Of a DNA stretch of 64,000 bases, positions 12,529 through 64,000 are shown one piece after another. The stretch's first letter is position 1. The number at the start of each line of letters is the position of its first letter. The notes beneath the pieces were generated by a model. The model saw nothing but the letters and a program-made list of their open reading frames with translations, made no database searches and was not told where the DNA came from. The position numbers and the translations under genes are program-made. The stretch covers positions 30,628 through 94,627 of the forward strand of contig CAVEPA010000007.1 of the NCBI GenBank assembly GCA_963617485.1. The letters are read 5' to 3'. The stretch comes from a bacterium. Its GTDB lineage: Bacteria > Bacteroidota > Bacteroidia > Bacteroidales > UBA1402.

Positions 12529-12602
12529 GGAAAGGCTTTTGCTTAAAATGACATATTCAAAATAAACTGACAAGCCTTTCCATTGCAGGAGAGGCTTTTT
12601 TT
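12529..12602 (+). promoter_or_regulatory. transcription attenuator: mutually exclusive antiterminator and terminator structures
   Basis: ggaaaggctt (12529-12538) is the perfect complement of aagcctttcc (12572-12581). That same segment also pairs with ggagaggctt (12588-12597, one G-U pair), which is followed by a T7 run. The 5' antiterminator arm starts at the first nt after the leader stop codon. Confidence 0.6.
12572..12602 (+). terminator. attenuator terminator hairpin upstream of ilvD
   Basis: 10-bp stem aagcctttcc / ggagaggctt, 6-nt loop attgca, then TTTTTTT (12596-12602). It ends 12 nt before the ilvD ATG. Confidence 0.65.
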
Positions 12603-12614
12603 ATTCAGGACAAG

Positions 12615-24185: not shown

Positions 24186-24313
24186 AATGAATTAATTAGA
24201 TTTGGTCGTGTTCAATATTCGCGTGCAAAGAAAGCGATTTCTCACGATTTAGGAAAGTGCTTAAGGCTATTTTTTAGTGAATAAATGCTATTTTTCCATG
24301 TCGTGAAACTTGA

Positions 24314-24345
24314 TTTGTTTTATGCGCATATTTGCCGTACTTTTG
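24314..24345 (+). promoter_or_regulatory. putative promoter of aspS
   Basis: TTTG 24314-24317 and tacttttg 24338-24345 are separated by 20 nt, about 45 nt upstream of the aspS ATG. This rests on motif matching only. Confidence 0.4.
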
Positions 24346-24390
24346 CAGTTCCCGTCCGAATAAACGAACAATCTTATAAAAATACAAAAA

Positions 24391-43516: not shown

Positions 43517-43560
43517 TGTAAATTGTTGATACTCAACGCCAAGCTGCGAGCCTGAGCGTT

Positions 43561-43610
43561 GCGAAAAGCCGCGTGCGGCCTTGCCCTGCAAGGCCGCACG
43601 CCCTTTTCGC
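43561..43610 (+). terminator. long hairpin downstream of the pectate lyase gene (terminator-like, no T-run)
   Basis: Outer stem gcgaaaag / cttttcgc plus inner 10-bp stem gtgcggcctt / aaggccgcac with loop gccctgc. Confidence 0.5.
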
Positions 43611-43708
43611 ACATCCGCTAAAAACACCTTTTCCCGAATTCGCGAACCTGCTAAATGCAATATTTCGGATAAAAATGCGATTTTTTTTTGAAAAAATTAG
43701 TTCACAAA

Positions 43709-43851: not shown

Positions 43852-44409
43852 ATGGAAAGTCTTGAGATTACCGAAACAAACCGCAAGGCCCCGCATGTAG
43901 GGGCATATATCAAAGCGGAGCTGGATGCCAAAGGCATGCGGCAAAAAGAGTTAGCCAAGCTAACTGGAATTCAAACCTCAACCTTGAACGACATCATCAA
44001 GGGCAGACGCGACATTACGGCCGAACAATCCATCCTCATTGGCCACGCCCTTGACCTTACCGACAATTATTTTTACAATCTGCAGCAGCAGTACGACATG
44101 GACAAAGCCCGCGAGTCGGAACGTGTTACCATGCAGTTGGACGCCATCACGAACTGGAACGCCCTGAAACATTATGTTTCCGAGAGCTTCTTCGACAAGA
44201 TGGGTCTGCTTGGTTCTGACATTAAGCACAATGTCGATGTCATTTTCGAAGTGTTCGGCGTCAAGAACCTCGACGAGTTCTTCGCCCTTCGCAATCAGGA
44301 AGCCCGCGTGGAAGCCAGCAAGAAAACCAAAAGACAGCCGGCCAGCGAACGGGACCTCTTCTCATGGAAATTCTACGGTAAGTTCCTCACCCGAGACAAG
44401 CGTCATTAA
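43852..44409 (+). CDS. XRE-family helix-turn-helix regulator (HigA/VapI antitoxin-like N-terminal domain) with a C-terminal extension of about 100 aa
   Basis: The N-terminus HVGAYIKAELDAKGMRQKELAKLTGIQTSTLNDIIKGRRDITAEQSILIGHAL matches the HigA-type HTH_3 pattern. No toxin-sized ORF is adjacent. Confidence 0.75.
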   Translation: MESLEITETNRKAPHVGAYIKAELDAKGMRQKELAKLTGIQTSTLNDIIKGRRDITAEQSILIGHALDLTDNYFYNLQQQYDMDKARESERVTMQLDAITNWNALKHYVSESFFDKMGLLGSDIKHNVDVIFEVFGVKNLDEFFALRNQEARVEASKKTKRQPASERDLFSWKFYGKFLTRDKRH

Positions 44410-45924: not shown

Positions 45925-45948
45925 GCGATGATGCGTTTTTGCCAAAAT

Positions 45949-47269: not shown

Positions 47270-48517
47270 ATGAAAAAGAGTTATTTGATTCTGCTTGCCG
47301 CTGTATGCGCATTTACAGCTTGCAAAAACGACGATTTCCTTGGAACCGTCAAGTCTGAAACCCCTGCTGCCGAACAGCAGATTGCTTTCTCAACATTCAA
47401 CAACAAAATGACCAAGGCTGAGAATTCTAATGAAACTGAAAAGATTTCTCTGCTTAAGCACCATGCCGATTTTTCCGTATGGGCGCTGAAAGACAACGAA
47501 ACCTCCAAGTGGGTGTTCAACGGCACCCAAGTTGAAGGCAAGGAAGAAAGCGGCGTTATCACTTGGGAACCCGTAGACGTACGTTTCTGGGACAAGACCG
47601 CTACCCGCTACGATTTCTACGCTGCCGCTCCTGCCAGTGCTGCTTGGGCGTTGAAAAATGTTGCTCCCAGCACGACTGCAACGGCTTACACAGGTGGTTA
47701 CTTCACCTTGGACGATGTTACTTTGGCAGACAAGACTTTGAATGCTAAGGACTATCAGGAATCTATGAAGGCTGACGAACAGACCAACATCGACTACATG
47801 ATTGCTACCGATAAGTTTGTTGAACAAGCCAATTTCGGTCAGGAAGTAGACCTCGACTTCAACCACATCCTTTCACGTTTGAACGTAACCGTTAAGCGCG
47901 GTCCCAGCCTCGAAAAGTGGGCCACCAAGAATCCAACCAAAGCCGAATATGCCAAGGTTGAGCTTACCGGCCTCGAGGTGGTAAAGATGCTCAGCAAGGG
48001 CTCTTTCGCTGAAAACGCTGTTAGCGGCACCGACCTGCAGCAGGGTACCACTGGCCGTTGGACCACCACCAGCGATGTTATCAACTACACCGCTTGCACC
48101 ACCAACGCTACCGACCTGACGGCTACTCCCGAAGTTTACGTGCTGCAATCGCTGGTAATGCCTCAGACCGTCAAGTACGAAGCTATCAACGCCGGTACCG
48201 GTAAAAAGGGCGATGGTACTGATGCCGCAGAAACCTATATCTGTGTAAAGTTCAAGATTGGTACGGAAGACTACACCACCTATGTAAACTTGGCTGCTGC
48301 TTTCGGTGCTAAGGAAGACGATTCTGCTACCACCGATATTGACGAATCTCTGATTGCCTTTAACGAAGGCTGGCAGAACACCCTGCGTATCGCCATCGAT
48401 GCTTCGGCTATCACCTTCACCGCTAACGCTTACAACTGGGCCGACGGTGCCGACAGCAGCTACACCATTGAGACTTCTATCAACATTCCTACCAACCTTG
48501 ATATTGTTGGTGAATAA
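47270..48517 (+). CDS. fimbrillin-family (type V pilin-like) lipoprotein, paralogue 1
   Basis: Lipobox AFTAC, then a first strand IAFSTF followed by KMTKAENS. It shares blocks with paralogues 2-4 (RFWDKTATRYDFYAAAP, DLDFNHILSRLNVTVKRG, IAFNEGWQNTLRIAID). Codon usage is gapA-like and T-ending. Confidence 0.7.
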   Translation: MKKSYLILLAAVCAFTACKNDDFLGTVKSETPAAEQQIAFSTFNNKMTKAENSNETEKISLLKHHADFSVWALKDNETSKWVFNGTQVEGKEESGVITWEPVDVRFWDKTATRYDFYAAAPASAAWALKNVAPSTTATAYTGGYFTLDDVTLADKTLNAKDYQESMKADEQTNIDYMIATDKFVEQANFGQEVDLDFNHILSRLNVTVKRGPSLEKWATKNPTKAEYAKVELTGLEVVKMLSKGSFAENAVSGTDLQQGTTGRWTTTSDVINYTACTTNATDLTATPEVYVLQSLVMPQTVKYEAINAGTGKKGDGTDAAETYICVKFKIGTEDYTTYVNLAAAFGAKEDDSATTDIDESLIAFNEGWQNTLRIAIDASAITFTANAYNWADGADSSYTIETSINIPTNLDIVGE

Positions 48518-48573: not shown

Positions 48574-49755
48574 ATGAAAAAGATTCTATTTCTGACTACG
48601 CTTGCAGCAGCTTTCGCCTTCGGCTTTAGCAGCTGCTCTAACGAGGAACTGGTAGAAAACATCGAGCAAGCTCAGGGTGCCGAAATCGCTTTCGATACCT
48701 TCGCCGACAAACTTACCAAGGCCGAAAACTCCGATAAGACAAGCACTACCGCATTGGAAGGCCACCACACAACTTTCAATGTATGGGGTACCAAAACGGT
48801 AGGTTCCACTACCAGTGTTGTTTACTCTGTAGCCGATAAGGGCTCGGTTTCATTCGCTTCCAGTGCTTGGACCGCTACTCCCAAAAAGTTCTGGGACAAG
48901 ACCGCTACCAACTACAACTTCTATGCAGCTGCTCCTGCTACCGCCAATTGGGCTTTTGCATTCACTACTGGCAATGCCGACGGCACCATTACGCTGGCCG
49001 ACTTTACCTTGGAAGGTAAGAACGCCCTTACCGCGGCTTCTGCCACTGCTGTTGATACTTGGAAGGATGTTGCTGACGATGTAGACCTGATGATTGCTTC
49101 TCCTTGCCTTGTGGCTCGTACCTCTTACAACAAGGCTGACCCCGACAAGGTGAACCTGCAGTTCAACCACATTCTTTCTCGCTTGAACGTGCTGGTAAAG
49201 AAGGGTGAAGTTTTGGAGAATGAAACAGTTTCTTTGACCGGTCTTAGCATTGTGAACCTCAAGAACAAGTCTTCTTTCGACGAAAGCAAGAAGACCGGCA
49301 CTGAACTGGCCGCTGGCACTACCGCCCGCTGGACTACTCCCGAGCTTGATGGTACTTACCAACTCGATGGTCTTACGCTGACCGCTACTACTAAAGAAGA
49401 CGGTGTTACCACCACCGCTCAGTATATAGGTGAATGGCTGATTATTCCGCAGGAAATCACTAAGAAGGTTCTGGATGTAGACTTTTCAGACAAGGGTGAG
49501 GGCTCTTCTACTGAAGATGGTGCCAAGAATGAAGCCTATGTAAAGGTTGATTACACCATCAACGGTGAAGAGTTCTTTGGTTACTACAACCTGGCTCACG
49601 CATTCAAGGCTGCCAATTCCGGCGACAAGATTGCCTTTAACGAAGGCTGGCAGAACAACCTTACCATCGTCATCAATCCCGATGTTATCGAATTCGATGC
49701 TGAGGTATTCGATTGGGCTACCAATGCCGAAAACGAGTTCAATATTCCTGAATAA
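48574..49755 (+). CDS. fimbrillin-family lipoprotein, paralogue 2
   Basis: Lipobox GFSSC, then IAFDTFADKLTKAENS, KKFWDKTATNYNFYAAAP, NLQFNHILSRLNVLVKKG and IAFNEGWQNNLTIVIN. It is clearly paralogous to 47270-48517. Confidence 0.7.
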   Translation: MKKILFLTTLAAAFAFGFSSCSNEELVENIEQAQGAEIAFDTFADKLTKAENSDKTSTTALEGHHTTFNVWGTKTVGSTTSVVYSVADKGSVSFASSAWTATPKKFWDKTATNYNFYAAAPATANWAFAFTTGNADGTITLADFTLEGKNALTAASATAVDTWKDVADDVDLMIASPCLVARTSYNKADPDKVNLQFNHILSRLNVLVKKGEVLENETVSLTGLSIVNLKNKSSFDESKKTGTELAAGTTARWTTPELDGTYQLDGLTLTATTKEDGVTTTAQYIGEWLIIPQEITKKVLDVDFSDKGEGSSTEDGAKNEAYVKVDYTINGEEFFGYYNLAHAFKAANSGDKIAFNEGWQNNLTIVINPDVIEFDAEVFDWATNAENEFNIPE

Positions 49756-49871: not shown

Positions 49872-50984
49872 ATGAAAAAGATTTTTGTTATTCTTTCAGC
49901 AGCACTTATGTTTGCCGCTTGCTCCAAGAACGATGTTATCGTTCCGGTAGAAGAAGACGAAACCGCTATCGATTTCAGCGCCGTAGCCGACAAGACTACC
50001 AAGGCCGCCATTAACGATAATGCCGACTTGGCCAAAGAAGGTGGTTTCGTGGTTTGGGGCTACAAGAACGCCAAGACCGCTACCGATTGGACTTCTGCTA
50101 CCACAATTTTTGATGCTCAGACTGTTACCGCTGCCGCCAACGATGGTGCTTACGTTTCAGGCAATGTAACCAACTGGACCTACACACCCAAACGTTTCTG
50201 GGACAAGAACGCCAACTACTGCTTCTATGCTGTAGCGCCTGTTAGCCCTGCCAATGGTACTTACTCTATCGCCGGCAATGCCAACGAAAAGAAAATCACC
50301 ATCGATGGTGCTGTTTCCGCTATCTCTACCGCTTCTGACGACCACCTGATTAGCCGCGCCGGTGTTATCGGCCGCGATGGCAAGACCACCGACAATGTAG
50401 ATTTCACCTTCAACCACGTTATGGCCAAGCTGACCTTCAAGGTTAAATTGCAGGACAAGCTCGTTCCCACCGACCTTAAGCAGATTGAAGTGAAAGAAAT
50501 CACTATGACGGGTTGGAATAATGGTGCCGGCAAATTCGTTCAGACGGCAACGACTACACCCGCTACTATCGAATGCAACGAGTGGAATATTGCTACGGCT
50601 GCCGATGGCAATATCATCCTGGTAGGTACTGGAGCTTCTCAAACCAGCATCGTACTGACACCAGAAACGGGTGATACCAACACTCCTACGGAGATTACCG
50701 ACTGGTACATTATGGTGCCTCAGGCTATTGCTTACACGGCTGCCTCAGGTGATGCTGCTGCCAAGGGTCTGACTTTCAATGTGAAGTACACCATGACGCT
50801 TGCCGATAACACCACCACCGAAGATTTCGAAGTGAGCGGTGTTGTTCCCGCTAGCCAGACTTGGGGTACCGACTCTTACACCAACTACACCATTATCGTA
50901 GGTCCGGAACCTATCGAATTTGATGTGGTATCAGTTGCCGGTTTCACCAACGATGGTGGCGACCAAACTGTAACGGTTCAGTAA
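49872..50984 (+). CDS. fimbrillin-family lipoprotein, paralogue 3
   Basis: Lipobox MFAAC, then IDFSAVADKTTKAAIN, KRFWDKNANYCFYAVAP and DFTFNHVMAKLTFKVKL. Confidence 0.7.
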   Translation: MKKIFVILSAALMFAACSKNDVIVPVEEDETAIDFSAVADKTTKAAINDNADLAKEGGFVVWGYKNAKTATDWTSATTIFDAQTVTAAANDGAYVSGNVTNWTYTPKRFWDKNANYCFYAVAPVSPANGTYSIAGNANEKKITIDGAVSAISTASDDHLISRAGVIGRDGKTTDNVDFTFNHVMAKLTFKVKLQDKLVPTDLKQIEVKEITMTGWNNGAGKFVQTATTTPATIECNEWNIATAADGNIILVGTGASQTSIVLTPETGDTNTPTEITDWYIMVPQAIAYTAASGDAAAKGLTFNVKYTMTLADNTTTEDFEVSGVVPASQTWGTDSYTNYTIIVGPEPIEFDVVSVAGFTNDGGDQTVTVQ

Positions 50985-51073: not shown

Positions 51074-52189
51074 ATGAGTAAGGCTTATATATATAAGGTA
51101 TGTTTGTTGGGCTTGGCCCTGCTGGGTTTGGCCTCGTGCGAAAGACGTAGCCAAAACACCGACAGGCTTATTTCCATGTCGGTGCTGGTGGAGCATACCA
51201 AAGCAGGACTCATAGAAGACAATGCCGGTTTCCAGCGTCAGGGCAATTTCGGGGTGTTCGGCTACAAGGCCATGAACAATACCGTAGATGCCAGTAGCCA
51301 GCTGATATTCAACAACCAGCTGGTGGAGAACGAAAACAAGGACACCGACCCCCTGCAAGCCGCTGTTTGGACCTACAGCCCCTTGCGCTACTGGGATACC
51401 CGTAAGGGCCAGTGGTACAACTATATAGCCTATGCGCCCCACAACTCGACGGGTGGTGTTACGGCTCAGGCCAGCATGACGTGTCAGGGTTCGGGCAGCG
51501 ATATGTATTACTCCCTCACGCTTAGCAATATTCCCGCTTGGCAACCGGCCGCTACGGGTATCGACTATCTGGTGTCGGATGTGTCGCGTGCCACGGGTGT
51601 GGATTATGTGAAGAATTACGCTTCGTGCGTAGACCTTACCTTCAACCATATTTTGGCGCTTGTAGACCTTGCGGCCTACAAAATTGATGGTACGGAATTT
51701 ACCATCGAAAAGGTACAGGCGGGCAGTTTGAGCGATGCCGACCGCATGGTGCCTACGGGCAACGACAATAGCTATGAACAGGCGGTGGTGTTTGGCGGCA
51801 GCCCTGCGGCGCTGCAAGCGCCGCAGCTGAGCCTTGGCTCCGCCAAGGGTCAGGCCTCCTGGTACCAGGAGGCTGCCGCTGACGGTGGAGTGGAGGTGCT
51901 CAGCAGTGACATGAACAACCCCACGCTTATCTGCCAGATGCTGGCTTTCCCCTTTAGCACAACGGGCGGCCTTAACCTGAACATCACCTTCAAGCGCGGA
52001 GCGCCCAGCGCTACGGTGGCCAGCGAAGTGGCTCAAGACAAGCTCATTACAAGTCTCAGCAAACTGGAGAGCGGCAAGCACTACAGTATCGTGCTCAAGT
52101 TCGAAGGCGGTCTGGTGGTAGACGTGCATGTGAGCGAAGTTCAAGATTGGATTATAAGAGACAGAAACCACAGTTTGTATAATTGGTAA
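51074..52189 (+). CDS. fimbrillin-family lipoprotein, divergent paralogue 4
   Basis: Lipobox GLASC, then ISMSVLVEHTKAGLIE, LRYWDTRKGQWYNYIAYAP and DLTFNHILALVDLAAYK. It uses ordinary (G/C-ending) codons. Confidence 0.6.
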   Translation: MSKAYIYKVCLLGLALLGLASCERRSQNTDRLISMSVLVEHTKAGLIEDNAGFQRQGNFGVFGYKAMNNTVDASSQLIFNNQLVENENKDTDPLQAAVWTYSPLRYWDTRKGQWYNYIAYAPHNSTGGVTAQASMTCQGSGSDMYYSLTLSNIPAWQPAATGIDYLVSDVSRATGVDYVKNYASCVDLTFNHILALVDLAAYKIDGTEFTIEKVQAGSLSDADRMVPTGNDNSYEQAVVFGGSPAALQAPQLSLGSAKGQASWYQEAAADGGVEVLSSDMNNPTLICQMLAFPFSTTGGLNLNITFKRGAPSATVASEVAQDKLITSLSKLESGKHYSIVLKFEGGLVVDVHVSEVQDWIIRDRNHSLYNW

Positions 52190-53251
52190 ATGAGCGAGCA
52201 AATGAGCAGGTATACCTTATATAATATATGTAAGACTTTGGCCATCGCCTGCATGCTACTGCTGACGGCCTGCCAGTCGGTGCAGGAATCCGACCTCGAT
52301 GCCGGTTTGCCTGTGGGAATCGGTGCTTTCGAAATGCAATCGCAGAGCGTGATAACGCGCGCCGTCAATGCCGGCTATCACGATTTCGACGCCACTGCCG
52401 ACATCACGGCCGATTCCAAACTCTACGGCTTTATCCAAAACTCGGCCGATACCTATATCAAGAGTGTTTCCACCTACGACTTTACGGCCGGTAAATGGAA
52501 TTCGGGCATGCGTCTGTTGTCGTATATGCCGCCCACGGGCTGGACTTTCCGCTTTTTTGCGCTCGTTACCGACAACACCGCCATTACCAGCAGCATGGCC
52601 AACAATGCCAGCGGCCAGCCTTGTATGACCATCGGCAATGTGCCGGCCTTCAGCCAATACAATATTATGCTTTCGAGCGGCGCGGTACTCAATGGCCTTA
52701 CTTTGGCCAAGGGCAGCTATACGGCCGCGCTCAGCAACGACAATCATCAGGTGAACTTTATGCTGGACAATCTTATGACAGCCCTCAACCTGAAAATCCT
52801 TATCGACAGCAAGTACAACGCCCTACGCGACGTGGTGGTAAAGGAAGTGAGGATAAATAGTCAGAATGCTGTTTACCAAGCCGTTGCAACTTTTACCACT
52901 TCGGGTATCTCGCTCACATCGAGCGTTACCGACGCCGAGGGCCAAGACTTTACGCTCAGTTTCGATCCGGGCCTGCAACTCACTACCACAGCCGCCGAGC
53001 TGGGCAGTTGCTACTTGGTGCCCAAACTGACAGGTCTCACTATGACCACTACCTACGACATCTACGACAAGAAGGGCAACCTGATTCGCGCCGACCAGAC
53101 GGCCGTCAACAACCTAGACAAGGCCCTGACCTCGGACGTGATGATGTCGAACAGCAAGATTAACCTCACCCTGAAGGTGGCTCCCACTTATTTGTATTCG
53201 CTCTCGGACGGCGATTTGGACAACCCCGGGGTAACCATTATAAAGAACTAA
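52190..53251 (+). CDS. fimbrillin-like lipoprotein, most divergent paralogue 5
   Basis: Lipobox LLTAC, then IGAFEMQSQSVITRAVN (strand plus R-A site) and VNFMLDNLMTALNLKILID at the position of the FNHILSRLN block. Its ATG abuts the previous stop. Confidence 0.5.
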   Translation: MSEQMSRYTLYNICKTLAIACMLLLTACQSVQESDLDAGLPVGIGAFEMQSQSVITRAVNAGYHDFDATADITADSKLYGFIQNSADTYIKSVSTYDFTAGKWNSGMRLLSYMPPTGWTFRFFALVTDNTAITSSMANNASGQPCMTIGNVPAFSQYNIMLSSGAVLNGLTLAKGSYTAALSNDNHQVNFMLDNLMTALNLKILIDSKYNALRDVVVKEVRINSQNAVYQAVATFTTSGISLTSSVTDAEGQDFTLSFDPGLQLTTTAAELGSCYLVPKLTGLTMTTTYDIYDKKGNLIRADQTAVNNLDKALTSDVMMSNSKINLTLKVAPTYLYSLSDGDLDNPGVTIIKN

Positions 53252-53273
53252 CGAGATAATATACCAGTTGAAT

Positions 53274-56200
53274 ATGAACCGCTATTTTACTGTTATCCTG
53301 ATATTGCTGACGTTTTCGGTATCGGCCAAGGCACAGATTACCATTGGCGGAAGCGTTTATGGTGGTGGCCGTAACGGCGCTGTGGGAACGGGCAACACCC
53401 CGGCCGCGCAGGTGGCTACGGCTGCCGACTTTGAGGCCGCTACGGTGGCCGCCCAGTCTACAGCCACGATGGTGACGGTAAACAGCGGTAGTTTGAACAA
53501 TATTTACGGCGGTGGCGAAAAGGGCAATAGCAAGGGCCAAACCAACGTCGTGCTCAGAGGCGGTTCGATAAACGGAAGTGTGTATGGCGGTGCCATGATG
53601 GCCGATATTGAGGGCTATTCGCACGTGAACATTGATGCTGCCAACCTGCGCAGCGACCTTGTGCTGGCCAATGTGTACGGCGGTAACGATATTGCCGGCA
53701 ACATCAGCCAGTTGGCCTATGTGGAATCTACTTACGCTTCCGACCTTGACAAGGCCGTGGCCGACGGCGGCAAGCGCTGCTATGTGCTGAACCTCTTTGG
53801 CGGCGGCAACGGCGACTATGCCGATTCGCTCTACACGGGCAGTCTTGAGCGTCCCACGCTGGCCCAAGCCGAGATTCACCTTACTTCGGGTTGCTACTAT
53901 CAGATTTTCGGCGGCGGCAATATGGCCACGGTAACGGCCAACACCACCATCGACCTGCAGAACCGGACACAATTGCGTTTCCATGCTTCGCAAAATGCAG
54001 ACGGCAGCTATAGCTTCGACGACGAAATTCCTGAATATCAGTTCGAAAGAGTATTCGGCGGCAACAACAAGGTGGCCATGGACATACGGCCCACTTGGAA
54101 CTTGCAAAAGGCTTCGGTAGAGAACCTTTATTCGGGCGGCAATGCCGGCGATATGACCTACCACACGGGTATCTTGCTCGAAATTGCCAGTGCCGACATG
54201 ACCGTCTACAACGTCTACGGCGGTTGCCGTATGGCCAATGTGAGCAATTCGGCCACGGTGACGGTGAGCGACGGTATCATTACCAATGTTTATGGCGGTA
54301 ACGATATCTCGGGCAATGTCTACGGCGGCACGCAGGTGAACATTCAAAGCAGCGTGCTGGGCGATGTTTACGGCGGCGGCAACGGTTCTTACGCCTATAC
54401 CGACAACATCAAGCTCAAGGACGATGCCCAATACAGCGATATTTTCTACGAAATTCCCGGTGTCGATTACGAGAATTTGCCCAGCGACATTTCCTTGCTC
54501 TCGGCCCAGGCACTCAACGCTTACCGACCCAATGCCGAGAACGTAACTATCTCGCTTTCAGGTAAGTCTGATGCCGAACCTACCTATATCGGCGGTTCGG
54601 TTTATTGCGGTGGCAACAGTGCTACACTGCGTTCCACCTCGGGCAATCTGGAAGCTGCTTCGGCCACGCTCAAGCTTGGTTCTTATGTGATAGCCAACCA
54701 CATTTTCTTGGGTAGCAACGGTGCCAATATGGTGGCCCGCGACCAGGCCGGCGATATGCTGCGTGTGCTTCGCGACGGCCCTGTCGACTACGATGCCACG
54801 GCGCAGGGTAAATATTCGCTGATGGATCTGACCGACCACGACACTTTCGAAGAATACATGAAGGGTGTCGAGGTGGCCATCAAGCCGCAAGTGGGTTTTG
54901 TGGATGATTATGTAGACTATTCGTCCAAGGTGGGTTCGGTGTATGTCGGTGGTAATGTGGGCAGTATGTCGGCCACGGGCTATTTCAACCTCTCGTTCCT
55001 GCAGAAGGTAGTGGTTTTCGAAAAGCTGGTGGGCGGCTGCAACAATGCCAATATATCGGCCGGTGCCTACAATGCCTATCACGAAGGCGGCCTTACTTCT
55101 TACAGTGCCACCAAGGTTATCATGAACGTGGAAGGCATGAAGCTGCAGCCCATGAAGCTGACGGCCAATGCCGACGGTACTTTTACCTTTGCCGAGAACC
55201 GTAATGCCGATGGCTTGCTGGTGGGTGGCAACATCTACGGCGGCTGCTACGAAAGCGGTTACATCAACGGTGGTGTGGAAATCAACATCAAGCAAGATGC
55301 CATCTCATCGTCCGTGAGCGATGCCGACCGTCAGCTTATCCGCGACAATGTTTTCTCGACAGCCCTCTCGGCTTTTGGCGGCGGTTATGGCCACAATGCC
55401 GAAATTTGGGGCGACGTTACGGTGAATATCAGCAACGATGCCAATATAATTAAGGTGTTCGGCGGTGGCGAAATGGGTGTGGTAGGACGCACCAAAGGCA
55501 GTGCCGCTCCCGAAAACCTTTTCCACGAACCTCTTACGGCCAACACCAATATCAGCATTACCGGCGGTACGGTGGGTAAAATCTACGGAGGCGGTTTCGA
55601 AGGTCTGGTAACGGGTAACACCAAGGTGATGCTCGACGGCGGTAAGGTGTACGATGCCATGGCCGGTGCCTGCAACGCCGATATTGACGGTTATGCCCAA
55701 ATGCTGATGGGTAGCGTGAACGGCGGTGCAACTACCACAGTGGAACACAACGTTTACGGCGGCAACGACTTTGGCGGACGCATTGCTTCGGCTGCCACCT
55801 ATACGGGTGCCAACGGCCAAAACGTGACGGCCAATACTTATGTGTCTTATCAAAAGGGTATAGTAGGGAACAGTATCTACGGCGGTGCTTGCGGCAGTTA
55901 CGACTATTCCGTTGCGCCTTACAGCACCAAGGCTGCCGAGGCCGGTTTCTACTATCCGAAATTCGAAACGCTACCCACGGGCGGCGACATCAATACCAAC
56001 AGTTTTGTGGATATCCGCACCACGGCTGCCAGCGACAAGGCCGACGGCAATATCTACGGCGGTGGCCGGGGCTTTTTGAATGCCAAGTCCGGCGATGCCC
56101 AGCTGGCCATTGTGGATATGAAACAGTCGTATGTGCTACTGCGCAGCCAGAACGCTACGGGTCTGGTGGCCGACAACATTCTGGGCGGCGGTTACTACTC

Positions 56201-59200
56201 GGTGGTTGAGCATACTTTGGTCGATGCCTTGAGCGGCCGTGCCAATATCCTTTACGGTGGTACTTACGGTGCTTCGGCCACCCTCATGGACGAAAACGTC
56301 AGCTACGACTGCAACACTACCACGGTGAACCTCAAGGGCATCAAGTACGACCAGCTGAATGTGTTCGGCGGCGGTGCCAATACGGGTGCCAGAATCACTT
56401 ACGTGAATCTGCTCGAAGGTTATGTGAAAGATGTCTATGGCGGTTCCAATATGGAAGGTGTCTGCGACAGCACTTTTGTTGATGTGCCTGCCAGCGGCAA
56501 GGAATTCATTGCCCATGCCATTTACGGCGGTGCTTACGGCAGCAGCGACAACCTGCCTTGCGATGTTTTGGTAGCCAACGTGAACTTCGCTTCCGACCAA
56601 GCTTATGTTTCGGGCGGCGAGCTGTTTGGCGGCAACAACAATGCCCGTGCTTCGCAAAAGACTTTTGTGACGGTGTCTGCACCGCTGCGTACGGCAGCCG
56701 GTGCTACGCTGGCCAGTGTGTTCGGCGGCGGCCAGGGTGTCAATTCGGTGGCCGGTTATACCAACGTTACGCTTAACAGCGGTGCCCAAGTGGGCAATGT
56801 CTACGGTGGCGGCGATGCCGGCAAGGTGTACGGCTATTACAACGACAACAGTGGCGCTGCTACTTACTACAACCAGACTTCGCATCCCGAGCATCCTTAT
56901 GCCCATTGGGCTTTTGAGGCTCCTGTTGCCGGAGGCAACTGGAGCACGGCAGCTGCCAGTCCCAATACCAATATTTATATCAACGAAGGTGCTACAGCCC
57001 AATATGTTTACGGTGCCGGTTACGGTTCGCAGGCCACCGTGTCGGGCAATACCTATGTGCTGCTCAACGGCGGTAAGGTAGAGAACGACATCTTCGGCGG
57101 CGGTTATTCGGGCAATGTACAGGCCATGGCCGCCAGCGACCTTGGCGCTGGCGGCACCATCCCTGCCGACCAGACGGACAATATCTACACCTATGTATTT
57201 GTACGCGGCGGTGCGGTGAACAACGTTTACGGTGGCGGTTACAACGGCCACGTCGGTCTGTCGGGCATAGCTTCGCAGGCCTCCACCGATGCCACCAACC
57301 CCAACACCCGCGTGGAAGTGGGTCTGTTGGAAGGCAGCAGCTTTACCGATGGTGTTCCTGCCATAACCCGCAGCCTTTACGGCGGCGGTTATAAGGGCGC
57401 TGTTTACGGTTTGGCCAAGGTGCAGATTTTCAACGGCTACACGGGCTATACCTACAACGCTGCCGGCCACTATGAAGAAAACCTCAACTATCAGGGTAGC
57501 ACGGCCAAACTGCTGAAAGAAAACGGCAATGTTTTTGGCGGCGGTTATGGTGAAGGTGCCACGGTAGACCGCACCGAAGTTTATCTCTGGAACGGTACGG
57601 TACGCAACAGCCTTTATGGCGGCGGCGAAATTGCAGCCATCGGCCGGGGTAGCGTGAACGATGACAAGAAGACCGCCACCATCAGCTTGCCCGGCAAGAC
57701 GTTGGTGGAAATGTACGGTGGTTTGGTAGCCGGCAATATCTTCGGCGGTGGCCGCGGTTATGCGGTAGATGCCTACGGTAACACGCAGAACGGCGAAATG
57801 GGTTATTCCGACGGTTATACCTTCGGCCATACCGAAGTTCACTTGCGCCGTGGCACCGTGGGTACGGACGACACTGTGCTGGAAGGCGACGGTAACATCT
57901 TCGGCGGCGGTAACATCGGTTATGTCTACACCGCTACCGGTACCAAGGATGCCAGCGACGGCTATTATTACAACAACGGTCTGCTTACCGAAGACTGCCG
58001 TGTGCTTATCGCACCCTATGCCAAGGTACTCGAAGCCGTCACCATAGACGGTACCAGCTACGGAGTGGGCGAGTTCGTTCCTACCGAAAAACTGAATACG
58101 CTCAGCGCTTCCGATGCTGCTTGGAGCAAGATAGACAATTTGGGTATCACCATCGGCAACGCCGTGTTTGCAGGCGGTAACGTTTCGGCCGGTTCCGATA
58201 AGGTATACGCCAATGCCAAGACCGTTTTCGGCAATGCCACGGCTTCCGTTACCGATATCTTCAACAAAGACTTTGTGGTAATCGGCGGCGATGGTATCGG
58301 CGGTTTGTATGGCGATGGCAACCTTACCTTTGTGGATGGCTACCGCGAGCTGAACATCACCAACTACGGTACCGACTACTACAACTTGAACAACCAGCTT
58401 ACCTACGAGCAATACATGATGCTCACCGACCGTGAGCGTGCCTATTTCGAGCTGCAATATATGTCCAATGTGGCACATACTTACGAATTCTACGAATGTC
58501 TCCATGCCGATTATTACGGCGAAATCTATTATAGAAAAGGCCAAAAACTGCCCGCATCCGCCTTCGAGGCGCTGGGCCTGACTGACGAAGAAAAAACGCA
58601 CTGGATACAGTCGTCGAAGAACTTCGACACGGGCGACAAGGTTTCGCAAGACGAATATAATTTGATGGATGATGCCGAGCAGGCCAACTGGGATTTGTTC
58701 GGTTTCTGTACCCTGTATGCCGGCCGTATGATTAACACCATACAGCGTGCCGACTTCTGCGGTGTGTTCGGCAGCCGTATCGTTATGCGTGGCGCGCGCG
58801 ACCGTGTGCCCTCCACCGTCGACTACACCTACTACACTATCAACCGTGTGGACGAAGTTTCGCTCAACCAAATGCCCGACCCCAAGAATCCTACCGATGC
58901 CAGCCAAAACCACGGCAACTACTTCGGTATCTATTCGGTGGTGAACTATCTGGGTGCCCTTACTTCGGATGTCGAGTTCGAGAGCGAACGTGTTACCGAC
59001 AATACCGATGCCAGCTATGCTCCCGATGGCCGTAGCTACTACGACTGGAAGAGCGCCAACTTGAACAACCGCAAGCGCAACAACGGTACCAGCCGCAACG
59101 AGGTGGCCCTGGCTTCCGGTGTATGGCTCGAAATTGTAGACAAGTCTACCGAAACGGCCGGTGAAAAGATTTACGGCCCCATCACCGGTGTGGTACAATT

Positions 59201-62200
59201 GGACTTGATTAACGTAGCTACCGGCGAAGGTGGCGGTTATGTATATGCCAAGAACATCCATGGTGTCAAGACCAAGCTCTCGCTTAAGCAGGTAACGCTG
59301 ACGGCTGCCAACCAAGGTGCCGTTTCGTACAAGGAGTTCTCTTATGCCGATGCCGTTCAGGCCGACCACATGCAGACTTCGGGCAACTTTGTGAATAGCC
59401 TCAAGCGCATTGTCGACGACTGCTATCCCGAAAACAACGCTTATGTGGGCAGCGATGCAGCTCCCGCCCATTACTGGTATGTGCGTGGCGACTTCTACGT
59501 TTACGAACAGAACATCTCGGCCTACACCGGTTCGTCGCAGGCTTATGCCGAGTCTATCACCATTCCGCTTACCATTACGGCCGAAGCTCAGGGCCGTCTG
59601 CGTCTGGAAAGTGTCAACGAAAACCTTTACGCCTACTGGAACGACAGCTACGATATCGACAAGTATCAAAGTCCGCTCGATGCCAACGCCATTATTGTGC
59701 AAGGTGTCACCTACCAGAAGAACGACCCCATTTCGTATTGGACCTATTCGCGTCTCACCGACGAGGAGAAACTGCTCTTCACCGATGAAACCTATGTCTG
59801 CTCCAAGGCTGTTTCCTACAATGGCAAAGACTACGCCAAGGGTGCCGTGCTGCTGCCTTCGGAATATGCCGCCATGCCTACCGACCAATATGTTTGCGAA
59901 TACGACTTTGTTGATGGCGATGCCGCCTACACCGAGGGTACGGTGCTGACGCAGGCCCAGTGGGAGTCGCTCAGTGCTTCCAACCAAGACAAGTGCGCTA
60001 CGGTGCGCTCGTTCTTCAACATCTCCAACGCCCTGTCGCACGACGAAGGCTTCCTGCTCACCTTCGACTGGGATAACCCCGACATCTGGAACGACTATTA
60101 CCAGCATGCCGCTACTGCCGGCGATGCCGACCAGCAAGTGGTGCGCAAGTCTGTTTACGATACTTACGATGCCACTACCAAGGCCGCTTACGTAACGGCT
60201 CCTTCGCTCAGGAGTACCACCACTTCGGTGATGGGTCAGTTGCAGTACACGCAGGGCGACCTTATCGAGAAGGAAATCTACGACTATCAGGCTCAGGTAA
60301 CCACCGACCTTGCTGCCAACGGCTTGACGGATACGCGTACCGGCCAGGCCAGCTTCGAAAAGGCTTGGGTGGCCAAGCAGGCCTGCAAGTTTACCGACAA
60401 TGGCCGCGACTACAATTATGTGGAAGGTGCCTGCATCTCCGATACCGAATATCAGGCCTTCAGCGCTACGGGCAAGGCTTACTTTACGCAAGGTATGCTC
60501 TGTACCAAGACCTATCAGCGCGGTGAAGACGAATATTACCTGCGCGGTTCGGTGCTGACTCTTGCCGACTACAACACACTCTTGGCCGAAGATGCCGAAA
60601 TAGCCGACCATTTCAGTGATCCTTACATTTGTACCAAGGACGGTGCTTGGGGCGGTAGCCTGTTTGTGCAGACCAACAATTACCCGGCACTGAAGTACGC
60701 CAACCTGACGGCGGCCGAACGCCAGAACTTCACCTACAACTACGATGCCCTCGACTTGATGTCGGAGAACTTCAATGCCAGCGACATCTTGCATTATCAG
60801 GGTGGGGTGGGCAACCATGCCAATGCGGGCAAGGCCATCGCCAAGCAGAACAACTATGCCGAAGAGGAGGCCATCGACTACACGGCCCGCTACGAAGGTG
60901 AGGATATGACCGCCGACAACTGTCTGGCCGAAGAGGTGCTTGTTACCCGCGATGGCAGCCAGCTGATGACCAATATGCTCAAGATGGGCGATATTCTTAA
61001 GAACACCGCTTACGAAAGCCTTACCAACGAGCAGTTCAAGTTTACGCCTATCACCGCCAGCGGTACCGACGATGCCGACAAGGTGTTCTATGTGGTGAAG
61101 GAAGGTTTCCAGACGGGCGACAACTATTACACCGTGGGCAACCAGATTACCGAGGCCATCTACCAAGGCATGACCAGCAGCAACAAGAACAAGGTGGCTT
61201 TGATATCGCGCAGCAGTCTGCCCAACTATCCTACGGGTAGCGAAACCAAGAGCTACTACTTCTGTACGCGCAAGTACACAGCCATATCGCCTCATACCGA
61301 CATCAACGGTGTCAGCTATGCCGTGGGCGACGAAGTGCCGGTAGGAACCATCATCTCGGCCGACCATTACAACACGCTGACGAACGAACAGAAGAACTTT
61401 GAAATAGACGGCAAGATTCCGACCTCGCTCACTACGCTCTATGTATCGCGCGAAGTGGACATCAACCAGCTGTCGCAAGACAAGATTGTTACCGTTATCT
61501 ATTGGTACGAATACATAGAAAGTGACGAAACGGGTATGTCGTACGAAACCATCCGCGAGCGTCATATCGTGAACATCCGCATCCATTTCGAGAGCGGTGT
61601 GCCCACCATCGGTGAGCTGCTGCCACCAAGTACGGTGCTGCCTTCGACGGCCGTGGGTCTGAATACGCCTACCATCGAGGAAGGTGCTTACGAACTGCTG
61701 GGTGGCGGTTGGGAAATGTACTCGAACGAGGCCGATGCCTACGCCCACAAGAACGGTGCCGAGTATGTGAACCGCAATACGCCCATGTACTGGTATCAGG
61801 ACGGTTACTATGTGGCCTACTACGCCAAGTCTTATCTGGGCAAGACTTACTCTAACCCCGTACAGTTCTCGGTGGCCAACTATCACCGTATGTCGGAAGT
61901 GATGAGCAATACGCACAGCGAAACCCTCGAAGACAACTCTACGGTAACGGTCAACGACTATATGTATCTGAACGATGCCATCAAGGCCGGCAAGCGTGCG
62001 CCCAAGGTTTACATCAAGGACAATGCCGATATGGAGGCTTTCGCAAGCTTCTTCAACAAGACTCTGACCGAAGAGAACCTCGACTTGGTACGCGGCGGTT
62101 CGGGTATCGACTTTATCCTTGCGGGCGATGTTGCCCTTAGCGGCAGCTGGACCTCGCTGGGCGACGACAGCCAGTGCTTCGAAGGTAACTTCCACGGCGA

Positions 62201-64000
62201 CGGTCATGCGCTGACCGGTCTCGACCATTCGCTCTTCGGCAATCTTTGCGGTAAGGTCTACAACCTGGGTGTGGCCGGTTCGTTCAGCTCGGCCGGTATT
62301 GCCGACCAGGGTAGCGGTAGCGTGAAGAACTGCTGGATTTACACCACCAACACTGCTGCCAAGGCTGTGAATGCCGTGCTGGGTACGCCTTCGCACAGCA
62401 ATGCTCAGGAACCTCAGATTATCAACTGCTACTATAACCAGGATGCCGCCTACAATAATCCTGTCAGCACCCACGGTCTTGCCAAGGCCATGCCGGTGCG
62501 GGCTTATCTGGATGGTCAGGTGGCCTTCCTGCTCAACGGCTTCTATCTGGAAAAACGTTATCAAGACAGCAAGAGCCTGACTGCCGGACAGCAATATCGC
62601 TACTGGCCGCTGGATAAACTGGATGGCAAGATAACGATGGCCAGCACCGCTTATTACGAAGACGATGTGGAAACCTATGTGGAAGAGCGTTATCAGTATG
62701 CCGACTTTATTTACGCCGACGGTACTATTCCTTTGACGACCGATGTGCGCCACAATATGAACGAAACCTATTCGCCGGTTTACCCCGACGACTACATCTA
62801 CTTTGGCCAGAGCCTGAGCTACAATATCGTTATGGGTGGTGGCAAGTCGGATGAATATCCGCATGCTGTGGCCCGTACCACCGACAAGAAACTGCTCCGT
62901 ACCGATGCCGCCGACACGCGTGTTTACCGTGCACCGGGCTACTACCAGAGCAAGCAGATGTCTACCGTTTACTTCAACGGCCATGCCGCCTTTGTAGATG
63001 ATTATGTGCTGACACCTGTAGCCGATGGCGGTATTTATGCGGCTGCCGAAACGATGGATGTCTACAAGACCTTGACGGCCATCGACTTTACCGGTCATGG
63101 CGATGCTTCTTGGCAAAGGGGCTGGAACGACGGTCTGTTCTATACGCCGCTGCTCGACTTCGAAGGCGTGTACTCCTTCCAGACCGATGGTATAACGCGC
63201 AACCTGCTGGTTTACATCAATCCCGCCGATGGCGATGCTTCTTCGGCCGACAGCCGCACCGACGCTGCGCTGGCCACTTTCTCGAAAGACCCCGCCTACG
63301 ACGATTACTATCAGGGCAACGGCTACCGTTCGGTAAGCAAGAACGAAATTGAAGTGATGGGCCACGTGGTATATAACAACGGCGGCAACTACATTGCCTA
63401 CAGCGACCACTTCCTGGTTGACAAGAACGACTTCAACGCGCCTATTGCCTATACCTTCGATACCGACAAGCGCATGTGGTACCAGCGCGAGCCAGACAAG
63501 TTCATCACCTCGATGACCCAAGGTTGGGAAAGCGTCAGCCTGCCCTTCGAAGTGGAACTGCTCAGCACCAACCAAAAGGGTGAACTTACGCACTTCTACG
63601 GCGACAGCAACAAGGGCCACGAATACTGGTTGCGTGCCTATGCCGATGCCACCGAGGATGCCACCGCTTCGCCTGTTAGCTACACGGTGAACATGAACCG
63701 TCCCGCCAGCCAGAGCGGCGCGTCCAAGACGGCCACCAGTACCTTCCTCTGGGATTACTACTACGAGGGTACGACCAGTGCCGGCGACAACACCGACGAA
63801 AATACCGACGCTTACCAGCGCCAGTACTACCAAAACGCCCGCGACTACGATGGCTACGCTTATCAGCAGGCAGCCACGCCTTACCTGGTGGGCTTCCCGG
63901 GCAGCAACTACTACGAGTTCGATTTGAGCGGCGGCTTCATTGCCCAGAATTCGGGCAGCGGAACGCCCGCCCAGCTGAACCGCCAGACCATCAGCTTTGT
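53274..64000 (+). CDS. giant secreted repeat protein (at least 3575 codons inside the window; the 3' end is beyond nt 64000), putative beta-helical surface adhesin
   Basis: ATG 53274 follows an in-frame TAA at 53241. By my own translation the frame stays open to the window end. The track lists no plus-strand ORF in this frame, as expected for an ORF with no stop in the window. The N-terminus MNRYFTVILILLTFSVSAKAQ is a type I signal peptide. About 40 [VIL]-[YF]-G-G-x motifs follow. Confidence 0.85.
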   Translation, partial: MNRYFTVILILLTFSVSAKAQITIGGSVYGGGRNGAVGTGNTPAAQVATAADFEAATVAAQSTATMVTVNSGSLNNIYGGGEKGNSKGQTNVVLRGGSINGSVYGGAMMADIEGYSHVNIDAANLRSDLVLANVYGGNDIAGNISQLAYVESTYASDLDKAVADGGKRCYVLNLFGGGNGDYADSLYTGSLERPTLAQAEIHLTSGCYYQIFGGGNMATVTANTTIDLQNRTQLRFHASQNADGSYSFDDEIPEYQFERVFGGNNKVAMDIRPTWNLQKASVENLYSGGNAGDMTYHTGILLEIASADMTVYNVYGGCRMANVSNSATVTVSDGIITNVYGGNDISGNVYGGTQVNIQSSVLGDVYGGGNGSYAYTDNIKLKDDAQYSDIFYEIPGVDYENLPSDISLLSAQALNAYRPNAENVTISLSGKSDAEPTYIGGSVYCGGNSATLRSTSGNLEAASATLKLGSYVIANHIFLGSNGANMVARDQAGDMLRVLRDGPVDYDATAQGKYSLMDLTDHDTFEEYMKGVEVAIKPQVGFVDDYVDYSSKVGSVYVGGNVGSMSATGYFNLSFLQKVVVFEKLVGGCNNANISAGAYNAYHEGGLTSYSATKVIMNVEGMKLQPMKLTANADGTFTFAENRNADGLLVGGNIYGGCYESGYINGGVEINIKQDAISSSVSDADRQLIRDNVFSTALSAFGGGYGHNAEIWGDVTVNISNDANIIKVFGGGEMGVVGRTKGSAAPENLFHEPLTANTNISITGGTVGKIYGGGFEGLVTGNTKVMLDGGKVYDAMAGACNADIDGYAQMLMGSVNGGATTTVEHNVYGGNDFGGRIASAATYTGANGQNVTANTYVSYQKGIVGNSIYGGACGSYDYSVAPYSTKAAEAGFYYPKFETLPTGGDINTNSFVDIRTTAASDKADGNIYGGGRGFLNAKSGDAQLAIVDMKQSYVLLRSQNATGLVADNILGGGYYSVVEHTLVDALSGRANILYGGTYGASATLMDENVSYDCNTTTVNLKGIKYDQLNVFGGGANTGARITYVNLLEGYVKDVYGGSNMEGVCDSTFVDVPASGKEFIAHAIYGGAYGSSDNLPCDVLVANVNFASDQAYVSGGELFGGNNNARASQKTFVTVSAPLRTAAGATLASVFGGGQGVNSVAGYTNVTLNSGAQVGNVYGGGDAGKVYGYYNDNSGAATYYNQTSHPEHPYAHWAFEAPVAGGNWSTAAASPNTNIYINEGATAQYVYGAGYGSQATVSGNTYVLLNGGKVENDIFGGGYSGNVQAMAASDLGAGGTIPADQTDNIYTYVFVRGGAVNNVYGGGYNGHVGLSGIASQASTDATNPNTRVEVGLLEGSSFTDGVPAITRSLYGGGYKGAVYGLAKVQIFNGYTGYTYNAAGHYEENLNYQGSTAKLLKENGNVFGGGYGEGATVDRTEVYLWNGTVRNSLYGGGEIAAIGRGSVNDDKKTATISLPGKTLVEMYGGLVAGNIFGGGRGYAVDAYGNTQNGEMGYSDGYTFGHTEVHLRRGTVGTDDTVLEGDGNIFGGGNIGYVYTATGTKDASDGYYYNNGLLTEDCRVLIAPYAKVLEAVTIDGTSYGVGEFVPTEKLNTLSASDAAWSKIDNLGITIGNAVFAGGNVSAGSDKVYANAKTVFGNATASVTDIFNKDFVVIGGDGIGGLYGDGNLTFVDGYRELNITNYGTDYYNLNNQLTYEQYMMLTDRERAYFELQYMSNVAHTYEFYECLHADYYGEIYYRKGQKLPASAFEALGLTDEEKTHWIQSSKNFDTGDKVSQDEYNLMDDAEQANWDLFGFCTLYAGRMINTIQRADFCGVFGSRIVMRGARDRVPSTVDYTYYTINRVDEVSLNQMPDPKNPTDASQNHGNYFGIYSVVNYLGALTSDVEFESERVTDNTDASYAPDGRSYYDWKSANLNNRKRNNGTSRNEVALASGVWLEIVDKSTETAGEKIYGPITGVVQLDLINVATGEGGGYVYAKNIHGVKTKLSLKQVTLTAANQGAVSYKEFSYADAVQADHMQTSGNFVNSLKRIVDDCYPENNAYVGSDAAPAHYWYVRGDFYVYEQNISAYTGSSQAYAESITIPLTITAEAQGRLRLESVNENLYAYWNDSYDIDKYQSPLDANAIIVQGVTYQKNDPISYWTYSRLTDEEKLLFTDETYVCSKAVSYNGKDYAKGAVLLPSEYAAMPTDQYVCEYDFVDGDAAYTEGTVLTQAQWESLSASNQDKCATVRSFFNISNALSHDEGFLLTFDWDNPDIWNDYYQHAATAGDADQQVVRKSVYDTYDATTKAAYVTAPSLRSTTTSVMGQLQYTQGDLIEKEIYDYQAQVTTDLAANGLTDTRTGQASFEKAWVAKQACKFTDNGRDYNYVEGACISDTEYQAFSATGKAYFTQGMLCTKTYQRGEDEYYLRGSVLTLADYNTLLAEDAEIADHFSDPYICTKDGAWGGSLFVQTNNYPALKYANLTAAERQNFTYNYDALDLMSENFNASDILHYQGGVGNHANAGKAIAKQNNYAEEEAIDYTARYEGEDMTADNCLAEEVLVTRDGSQLMTNMLKMGDILKNTAYESLTNEQFKFTPITASGTDDADKVFYVVKEGFQTGDNYYTVGNQITEAIYQGMTSSNKNKVALISRSSLPNYPTGSETKSYYFCTRKYTAISPHTDINGVSYAVGDEVPVGTIISADHYNTLTNEQKNFEIDGKIPTSLTTLYVSREVDINQLSQDKIVTVIYWYEYIESDETGMSYETIRERHIVNIRIHFESGVPTIGELLPPSTVLPSTAVGLNTPTIEEGAYELLGGGWEMYSNEADAYAHKNGAEYVNRNTPMYWYQDGYYVAYYAKSYLGKTYSNPVQFSVANYHRMSEVMSNTHSETLEDNSTVTVNDYMYLNDAIKAGKRAPKVYIKDNADMEAFASFFNKTLTEENLDLVRGGSGIDFILAGDVALSGSWTSLGDDSQCFEGNFHGDGHALTGLDHSLFGNLCGKVYNLGVAGSFSSAGIADQGSGSVKNCWIYTTNTAAKAVNAVLGTPSHSNAQEPQIINCYYNQDAAYNNPVSTHGLAKAMPVRAYLDGQVAFLLNGFYLEKRYQDSKSLTAGQQYRYWPLDKLDGKITMASTAYYEDDVETYVEERYQYADFIYADGTIPLTTDVRHNMNETYSPVYPDDYIYFGQSLSYNIVMGGGKSDEYPHAVARTTDKKLLRTDAADTRVYRAPGYYQSKQMSTVYFNGHAAFVDDYVLTPVADGGIYAAAETMDVYKTLTAIDFTGHGDASWQRGWNDGLFYTPLLDFEGVYSFQTDGITRNLLVYINPADGDASSADSRTDAALATFSKDPAYDDYYQGNGYRSVSKNEIEVMGHVVYNNGGNYIAYSDHFLVDKNDFNAPIAYTFDTDKRMWYQREPDKFITSMTQGWESVSLPFEVELLSTNQKGELTHFYGDSNKGHEYWLRAYADATEDATASPVSYTVNMNRPASQSGASKTATSTFLWDYYYEGTTSAGDNTDENTDAYQRQYYQNARDYDGYAYQQAATPYLVGFPGSNYYEFDLSGGFIAQNSGSGTPAQLNRQTISF
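53340..58320 (+). repeat. protein-level periodic region of the giant ORF (about 40 copies of the motif [NSD]-[VIL]-[YF]-G-G-[GNCAST], spaced roughly 20-60 aa apart)
   Basis: Examples read off the translation are SVYGGGRNG, NIYGGGEKG, NVYGGNDIAG, NLFGGGNGD, DVYGGGNGS, KIYGGGFEG, NIYGGGRGF, NVYGGGDAG, SLYGGGYKG, NIFGGGRGY and NIFGGGNIG. At the DNA level tacggcggcgg/ttcggcggcgg recurs. Confidence 0.7.

Follow-up and report, generated by a model that had tools for sequence, protein, structure and literature searches.

We propose that a giant gene on the plus strand, beginning at position 53274 of the 64,000-nucleotide (nt) stretch analysed here (the window; contig CAVEPA010000007.1 of assembly GCA_963617485.1, positions 30,628 to 94,627, from a bacterium of the Bacteroidales lineage UBA1402) and running off its end, probably encodes a long beta-solenoid adhesive fibre that is exported through a type IX secretion system (T9SS) and is functionally tied to the type V pilus encoded with it. 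The open reading frame (ORF) itself is a real protein-coding gene, and the long minus-strand ORFs that lie opposite to it are an artefact of codon usage. Its product is, in our reading, a surface protein secreted by an uncultured member of the Bacteroidales from gut or rumen, and we infer its function.

Read from ATG 53274, the plus strand runs through 3,575 codons with zero stops until the window ends at 64000, starting MNRYFTVILILLTFSVSAKAQITIGG and ending in the residues ...AQLNRQTISF, exactly the strings quoted by an earlier note on this DNA that had described the frame as uninterrupted; that note had allowed for a misread in-frame stop between 53274 and 64000, and none is present. An open frame of 3,575 codons is far beyond chance, and over the same interval the other two plus frames hold 126 and 80 stops, two minus frames hold 264 and 159, and the minus frame that is codon-aligned with the gene holds 4. 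The frame opens downstream of an in-frame TAA (53241-53243), the upstream gene stops at 53251, 22 nt short of the ATG, and the sole alternative start is a TTG at 53268. As the earlier note had recognised, the gene was hidden from the ORF list with which it worked because ORFs running off the source are not listed, the list does hold four minus-strand ORFs there at the coordinates it gave, and the gene is the largest of the window, followed by carB with 1,076 amino acids (aa). Its description as "10.7 kb and counting" stands in so far as the frame does continue past the window, but the gene is nearly complete, as a 95% identical ortholog ends 178 residues beyond the last window codon. The features of the gene and of the strand opposite are as follows.

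53274..64000, plus strand: giant ORF, codons 1 to 3,575 out of about 3,753, cut by the window end; no in-frame stop; orthologs of 3,386-4,387 aa, with 178 aa added by that of locus L003.

53274..53333, plus strand: putative signal peptide, aa 1-20, MNRYFTVILILLTFSVSAKA followed by Q; signal-peptidase-I type without a lipobox Cys, by sequence inspection.

53337..57923, plus strand: predicted beta-solenoid region, aa ~22-1550, with 34 [YF]GG coil motifs and 14-20% Gly.

57951..59663, plus strand: central core, aa 1560-2130, the most conserved part, with 50-69% identity to 12 orthologs and many invariant Gly, Tyr and Arg.

59664..61373, plus strand: Tyr-rich variable region, aa 2131-2700, with 28-41% mean column identity.

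61374..63998, plus strand: conserved C-terminal multi-domain module, aa 2701-3575, with 126 homologs; AlphaFold 2 (AF2) model with a predicted local distance difference test score (pLDDT) of 74.7.

56136..63833, minus strand: antisense shadow ORF of 2,565 aa, not a gene; codon-aligned with the sense frame, its stop being the sense codon CTA 56136; no Pfam match and not conserved.

53238-54431, 54558-55295 and 55305-55853, minus strand: three more antisense shadow ORFs, not genes; the stops of the latter two are the sense codons TCA 54558 and TCA 55305.

In the codon-aligned minus frame an antisense stop requires a TTA, CTA or TCA codon on the sense strand, and the giant ORF contains 0 TTA, 2 CTA (55971 and 56136) and 2 TCA (54558 and 55305), three of these four being the stops of listed minus-strand ORFs. 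Above 55853 it is the fourth, CTA 55971, that shuts the aligned frame, and the stop of 53238-54431 sits upstream of the ATG of the giant gene. The shadows thus exist because NNA codons, and specifically TTA, CTA and TCA, are nearly absent from the gene, in which 7.8% of codons end in A. The effect extends over the whole genome. Third-position A amounts to 9-14% in most genes of the window, and long codon-aligned antisense ORFs accompany many of these genes because NNA codons are rare. Other such pairs are 12543-14399 (minus) against ilvD at 12615-14441 (plus), 24274-25965 (minus) against aspS at 24391-26151 (plus), 21015-23933 (plus) against carB at 20955-24185 (minus), and 41603-43660 (minus) against 40814-43516 (plus).

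Were the 2,565-aa minus-strand ORF a real gene, either alone or overlapping the plus-strand gene, this would account for two figures, namely that an open antisense run of 2,620 codons has a probability of about 1e-7 at the window-average TTA+CTA+TCA share of 0.62%, and that the giant gene is more depleted in these codons than average (0.11%; 4 observed against 22 expected, P=3e-6). We give such a gene next to no credence, since equal depletion is found in several housekeeping genes of the window (ilvD has none of these codons among 608, a GATase-domain gene none among 468, and aspS 1 among 586), and these and others likewise carry full-length or near full-length shadows. The codon bias of the giant gene, although the strongest in the window, falls inside the spread shown by the most biased genes, comparable to that of ilvD and aspS, and may reflect selection that favours translating so long an mRNA efficiently. 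The substitution pattern against the 94.9% identical ortholog at locus L003 speaks to the same question: 195 of the 288 differences (68%) fall at sense codon position 3, and the differing codons divide into 176 synonymous and 85 non-synonymous in the sense reading but into 41 and 220 in the antisense reading. The plus frame is under purifying selection. Furthermore, the aligned antisense frame holds 27-103 stops in 11 orthologs of other species, in which the sense ORF is intact, long shadows are confined among the orthologs to those with a third-position A share of at most 7%, and the antisense translations gave no Pfam match above threshold. Codon alignment, substitutions, antisense stops and the missing Pfam match together confirm that the 2,565-aa ORF is the antisense shadow that the earlier note took it for, and its companion claim, that the plus frame is the real gene, is upheld by purifying selection as well as by the homologs and the colinear full-length orthologs in 12 species described below. 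The case matters beyond this gene, in that stop-to-stop ORF tracks hide genes that leave contig ends and, in genomes that avoid NNA codons, display long antisense ORFs that are open to mis-annotation; any such track of the present genome would be full of false strand pairs.

The gene belongs to a large family. With the C-terminal 975 aa as query 126 homologs were found (top E=1.6e-228, about 40% identity), and with the N-terminal 1,000 aa 404; the named homologs are all 'hypothetical' but one, and almost none carries a precomputed Pfam domain. For both queries this indexed, word-based search gave only proteins of at most 1,738 aa, which are fragments, frameshifted or contig-cut, and an exhaustive HMMER search of 1.84 billion representatives recovered 319 family members (counted at 50% clustering), 195 of them at E<=1e-30 and most of them 3,200-4,700 aa long, the match stopping about 180 aa short of their C-terminus. 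Match lengths from an indexed search can therefore mislead on the architecture of giant proteins. A literature search found no description of the family. A scan of reference genomes gave 16 loci, all in Bacteroidales metagenome-assembled genomes (MAGs) of rumen, horse and gut that bear the labels Prevotellaceae, Bacteroidaceae, Ca. Colenecus caballi and Ca. Liminaster caballi, and 12 of the 16 hold intact colinear ORFs of 3,386-4,387 aa, representing 12 other species. The ortholog at L003, which comes from an uncultured member of the Bacteroidales, shares 95% identity across aa 1675-3575 and then goes on for 178 further residues. This puts the full protein at about 3,753 aa, of which the window covers about 95%.

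Some relatives are broken, as would be expected if the giant ORF were itself a pseudogene remnant or an assembly chimera. The homolog at locus L001 (1-7452) is colinear with aa 1231-3575, is split over frames 2, 1, 3, 1, and is cut by the contig start, and that of contig L002 is cut short beside a phage-like insertion. For the copy in the window such an origin is highly improbable, given that it is open for 10.7 kb, is colinear with 12 intact orthologs over aa 1-3575, has no DNA tandem repeats to cause misassembly and shows the strongest codon bias in the window. The L001 homolog has been called as four separate genes and reflects either a pseudogene or MAG assembly errors. At L002:1-9900 the shortened homolog P0007, which starts mid-protein, adjoins a phage-like block with genes for VapE, DNA polymerase A, a PDDEXK nuclease and an Enc34 single-stranded DNA-binding protein, which suggests that a mobile element inserted into the giant gene of that contig.

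By inspection the signal peptide of the protein has a basic n-region, a hydrophobic core and an A-x-A followed by Gln, with putative cleavage between AKA and Q, and a Gln directly after the cleavage site fits the 'Q-rule' of Bacteroidetes. The feature is shared by the family, whose consensus reads QAQIxIGGNVYGGGN. The [YF]GG motifs follow one another at spacings of mostly ~25-55 aa over the region from aa ~22 to 1550, and the AF2 model of aa 1-1000, built on a 72-sequence alignment, consists nearly entirely of short beta-strands (pLDDT 88.5; predicted template modelling score, pTM, 0.89). With high confidence, the N-terminal ~1,500 aa are predicted to form an all-beta solenoid of diverged 'VYGGGN' coils. 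The gene contains no DNA tandem repeats, and the solenoid coils are therefore old and diverged. Across 13 orthologs 569 positions are invariant, of which 171 are Gly and 74 are Tyr, and a motif scan of the protein found no HExxH, no CxxC or lipase-type motif of note and no catalytic motif; a structural role fits this dominance of Gly and Tyr. Profile searches of the Protein Data Bank (PDB) with aa 1560-2130 and aa 2131-2700 found no relative. The C-terminal module includes a short beta-helix element near CFEGNFHGDGHALTGLDHSLFGNLCGKVYNLGVAGSF (aa ~2960-3030), a part that resembles the Peptidase_M26_N/3n6z modules of Bacteroidales surface proteins in that the profile of the C-terminal module has a weak match (E=0.026) to 3n6z, which is named a 'putative IgA1 protease'. 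Unlike an M26 IgA1 protease, however, the giant protein contains no HExxH or other protease motif, and the 3n6z match is below significance and concerns a non-catalytic beta-helix.

Export by the T9SS is well supported for the family, from which we extend it to this gene. Family tails follow the pattern …DVRIVN..G…FTIQPGETVET.V…GVYIV…KK..VK, and 25 of 32 tails scanned singly match TIGR04183, the T9SS type A sorting domain, at best with E=1.4e-8. A profile of the tails weakly matches the C-terminal ends of the T9SS cargos RemA (8gl6_D, E=0.13) and HBP35 in the PDB, and two members, P0049 and the 3,885-aa P0402, bear the NCBI name 'T9SS type A sorting domain-containing protein'. Adhesins of several hundred kDa, such as SprB, are known cargos of the T9SS (PMC10202324).

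The tie to a pilus comes from the genes that precede the giant gene, all on the same strand.

43852..44409, plus strand: HTH_3 (Cro/C1-type) regulator gene upstream of the operon (Pfam PF01381, E=7e-10).

44599-45924, plus strand: DUF3575 gene, first of the pilus operon (Pfam).

45928-47181, plus strand: DUF5119 lipoprotein gene, second of the pilus operon (Pfam).

47270-48517, 48574-49755, 49872-50984 and 51074-52189, plus strand: four Mfa_like_1 fimbrillin-like lipoprotein genes (PF13149, E=1e-11 to 4.5e-14), with a lipobox Cys in all.

52190..53251, plus strand: divergent fimbrillin-like lipoprotein of 353 aa, with the lipobox LTAC, aligned by hhalign to the Mfa-like family.

Judged by its gene content, the run from DUF3575 to the giant gene, which is the last gene of the window, is a type V pilus operon; a link of the HTH_3 gene to it is unproven. 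Homologs of DUF3575 and DUF5119 hold the same position at loci L008 and L014. The 353-aa lipoprotein has no match above threshold in Pfam or NCBIfam, its family aligns with the Mfa-like family by hhalign at a probability of 96.8% (E=2.5e-10), and it ends in a conserved C-terminal motif (A/TPTYLYxLSxxDLDxP). Among the 13 loci that retain upstream flank, 12 have its ortholog directly upstream of the giant gene, and farther upstream the loci carry several fimbrillin-like genes, plus DUF5119 and DUF3575 where the flank reaches. We regard this protein as a candidate for an adaptor that would link the giant to the pilus. When the upstream DUF5119, Mfa-like and 353-aa proteins were compared with the PDB, nothing useful was matched. 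All six pilin-like upstream genes (DUF5119 and the five fimbrillin-like genes) encode lipoprotein signals, and the giant lacks a lipobox Cys; the idea that the giant is itself a type V pilin of the FimA/Mfa1 superfamily was rejected, there being no lipobox Cys and no Mfa_like or FimA Pfam match.

We therefore favour the following model, as far as sequence and context allow one. Sec would carry the giant protein across the inner membrane, with the signal peptide cleaved between AKA and Q, and the protein would then fold in the periplasm. The T9SS would translocate it across the outer membrane by means of a C-terminal type A sorting domain expected just past the window end, after which it would be displayed either anchored to anionic lipopolysaccharide (A-LPS) or bound at the tip of the co-encoded type V pilus, in the manner of Mfa5. 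The solenoid would serve as an adhesive fibre, rigid and of long reach, with which the cell attaches to plant particles, host surfaces or other cells. So described, the protein fits two known kinds at once, the giant adhesins of the T9SS and the pilus accessories of the Mfa5 type, within a family that is itself uncharacterised.

Mfa5 of Porphyromonas gingivalis is a non-lipoprotein, T9SS-dependent tip or accessory protein that bears a sorting domain, as opposed to the lipoproteins Mfa1-4 (PMC8512630, PMC7835359). Both its gene and the giant gene come after the pilin genes of a type V pilus operon, both products have a Sec signal without a lipobox, unlike the lipoprotein pilins, and both have a C-terminal T9SS sorting domain, which for the giant is established at family level. 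Mfa5 is also highly variable and is sometimes followed by a second tandem copy (PMC8512630). [quoted passage not shown]

A simpler arrangement, in which the giant is a T9SS-exported fibre anchored alone to the outer membrane through A-LPS and merely co-regulated with the pili without being part of them, seems to us possible but distinctly less probable than a functional tie. Type A sorting domains normally give A-LPS anchoring (PMC10202324), and the vWA domain, through which Mfa5 is proposed to be tied to the tip proteins (PMC8512630), is absent from the giant. On the other hand, the same divergent fimbrillin-like lipoprotein stands directly upstream in 12 of 13 loci across ~35-53% protein divergence, and so tight a linkage between giant and fimbrillin suggests a physical partnership over mere co-regulation.

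Several observations weigh against the model of a T9SS-exported fibre tied to the pilus. The position of the sorting domain falls past the window end, and the L003 tail, although it aligns with the family tails, scores below the TIGR04183 threshold alone; no T9SS machinery was seen among the scanned genes of the 64-kb window. No vWA family was found in the giant at E<=1 in Pfam or NCBIfam, and a phmmer comparison of the giant with the PDB, including the N-terminal structure of Mfa5, showed no similarity to the solved part of Mfa5. Searches of all 3,575 aa and of three orthologs against Pfam and NCBIfam gave no family above threshold, and whole-protein and region-profile sequence searches of the PDB gave no significant relative. 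Foldseek comparison of the aa 1-1000 model with the PDB returned nothing at E<=0.001 (best E=0.09), and that of the C-terminal module model likewise returned nothing at this level, with weak generic Ig and fibronectin type III (Fn3) folds. The label 'adhesin' is thus drawn from predicted fold class and context, and co-transcription with the pilin genes is suggested by the 22-nt gap and conserved synteny.

Could the solenoid be an enzyme? Right-handed beta-helices of the pectate-lyase or glycosidase-like sort degrade polysaccharides at the cell surface in this reading, and the window does encode a pectinesterase/GDSL protein, a PelZ-like protein and a GH43 enzyme; among the non-significant Foldseek matches there are furthermore tailspike depolymerases, a glucanase and an alginate lyase. 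We nevertheless consider it unlikely, as no pectate-lyase, Beta_helix or glycoside hydrolase family was found at E<=1, no catalytic motif was seen, the conserved residues are mostly Gly and Tyr, and the operon is fimbrial and not a polysaccharide utilisation locus.

Among adhesins, the preferred class for the giant, two further groups bear comparison. SprB and RemA of Flavobacterium johnsoniae are likewise very large T9SS cargos that form adhesive surface filaments (PMC10202324), and the weak contact of the C-terminal profile of the giant family with the C-terminal end of RemA is in line with this. The giant differs from SprB in having no SprB-repeat matches in Pfam or NCBIfam, in family tails of type A where SprB has type B, and in a context that is a pilus operon and not a gliding operon. 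The beta-helical adhesins of Proteobacteria (the passengers of Ag43, Hap, EspC and IgA1 protease, and the TpsA proteins HxuA and EtpA) share the long all-beta solenoid and the rigid extended adhesive stalk, and dominate the Foldseek list for aa 1-1000, which is made up mostly of beta-helical adhesins, autotransporter passengers and tailspikes, none of them significant (E>=0.09, TM-score<=0.2 for these adhesins). In contrast to them, the giant has no autotransporter barrel or two-partner secretion (TPS) domain in Pfam or NCBIfam, its secretion route would be the T9SS, and its VYGGGN coil belongs to no Pfam repeat family.

At L003 another ORF (L003:6236-8308) begins 4 nt before the stop of the giant gene, and a second giant gene, which overlaps that stop codon, follows downstream in at least 8 other loci, namely L007 (17321-23632), L005, L008, L009, L014, L015, L017 and L018, with 1,850-2,900 aa in seven of them and 747 aa in L009. 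The partner protein has a Sec signal and Fn3_assoc, CHB_HEX_C, Big_2 or RicinB domains, which are Ig- or lectin-like, and carries a paralogous copy of the C-terminal module of the giant; the partner genes also match PF05342 (Peptidase_M26_N) just below threshold. Its conserved C-terminus is not a sorting domain (hhalign probability 0.2%) and is the same 'NVYGGGN' coil type as the N-terminus of the giant (hhalign probability 96.7%). A speculative extension of our model, which we think improbable, is that the two join into a single composite fibre at the surface, over 6,000 residues long, in which the solenoid end of the partner would stack on the N-terminus of the giant, the giant would anchor the partner and pull it through the T9SS by piggy-back export, and the fibre would be mounted on or beside the type V pilus. 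If true, this would be a new assembly principle for the surface fibres of Bacteroidota.

The family deserves attention, in that the ecology of gut and rumen Bacteroidales depends centrally on their attaching to plant fibre, mucus and other cells, and their large surface proteins are almost all annotated as 'hypothetical'. Here 319 representatives form an uncharacterised family with no Pfam domain or solved relative that is found consistently in type V pilus operons at the Mfa5 position. Cooperation of the T9SS with type V pili, known from one oral pathogen, is suggested by this to be a general and much more elaborate theme.

Around the operon, a promoter and terminator scan gave promoter-like sites at shuffle level, with a consensus that does not suit Bacteroidota, and no invertible-promoter-like repeats were found before it. 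At 43571-43601, 55 nt past the stop of a 900-aa gene, lies an inverted repeat of 14 nt that is perfect and has a loop of 3 nt (GCGTGCGGCCTTGC/GCAAGGCCGCACGC). It is probably a terminator, with the 900-aa gene on one side and the HTH gene and pilus operon on the other. The other genes of the window, among them carB, ilvD, ilvB, aspS, lepA and lptF/G, are those of an ordinary chromosome. Genes for breaking down pectin and hemicellulose lie at 3745-5406, 29000-30478 and 40814-43516 (a pectinesterase-GDSL esterase fusion, a GH43 protein and the 900-aa protein with similarity to PelZ-like pectate lyase), and they are consistent with a plant-fibre-degrading organism of gut or rumen.

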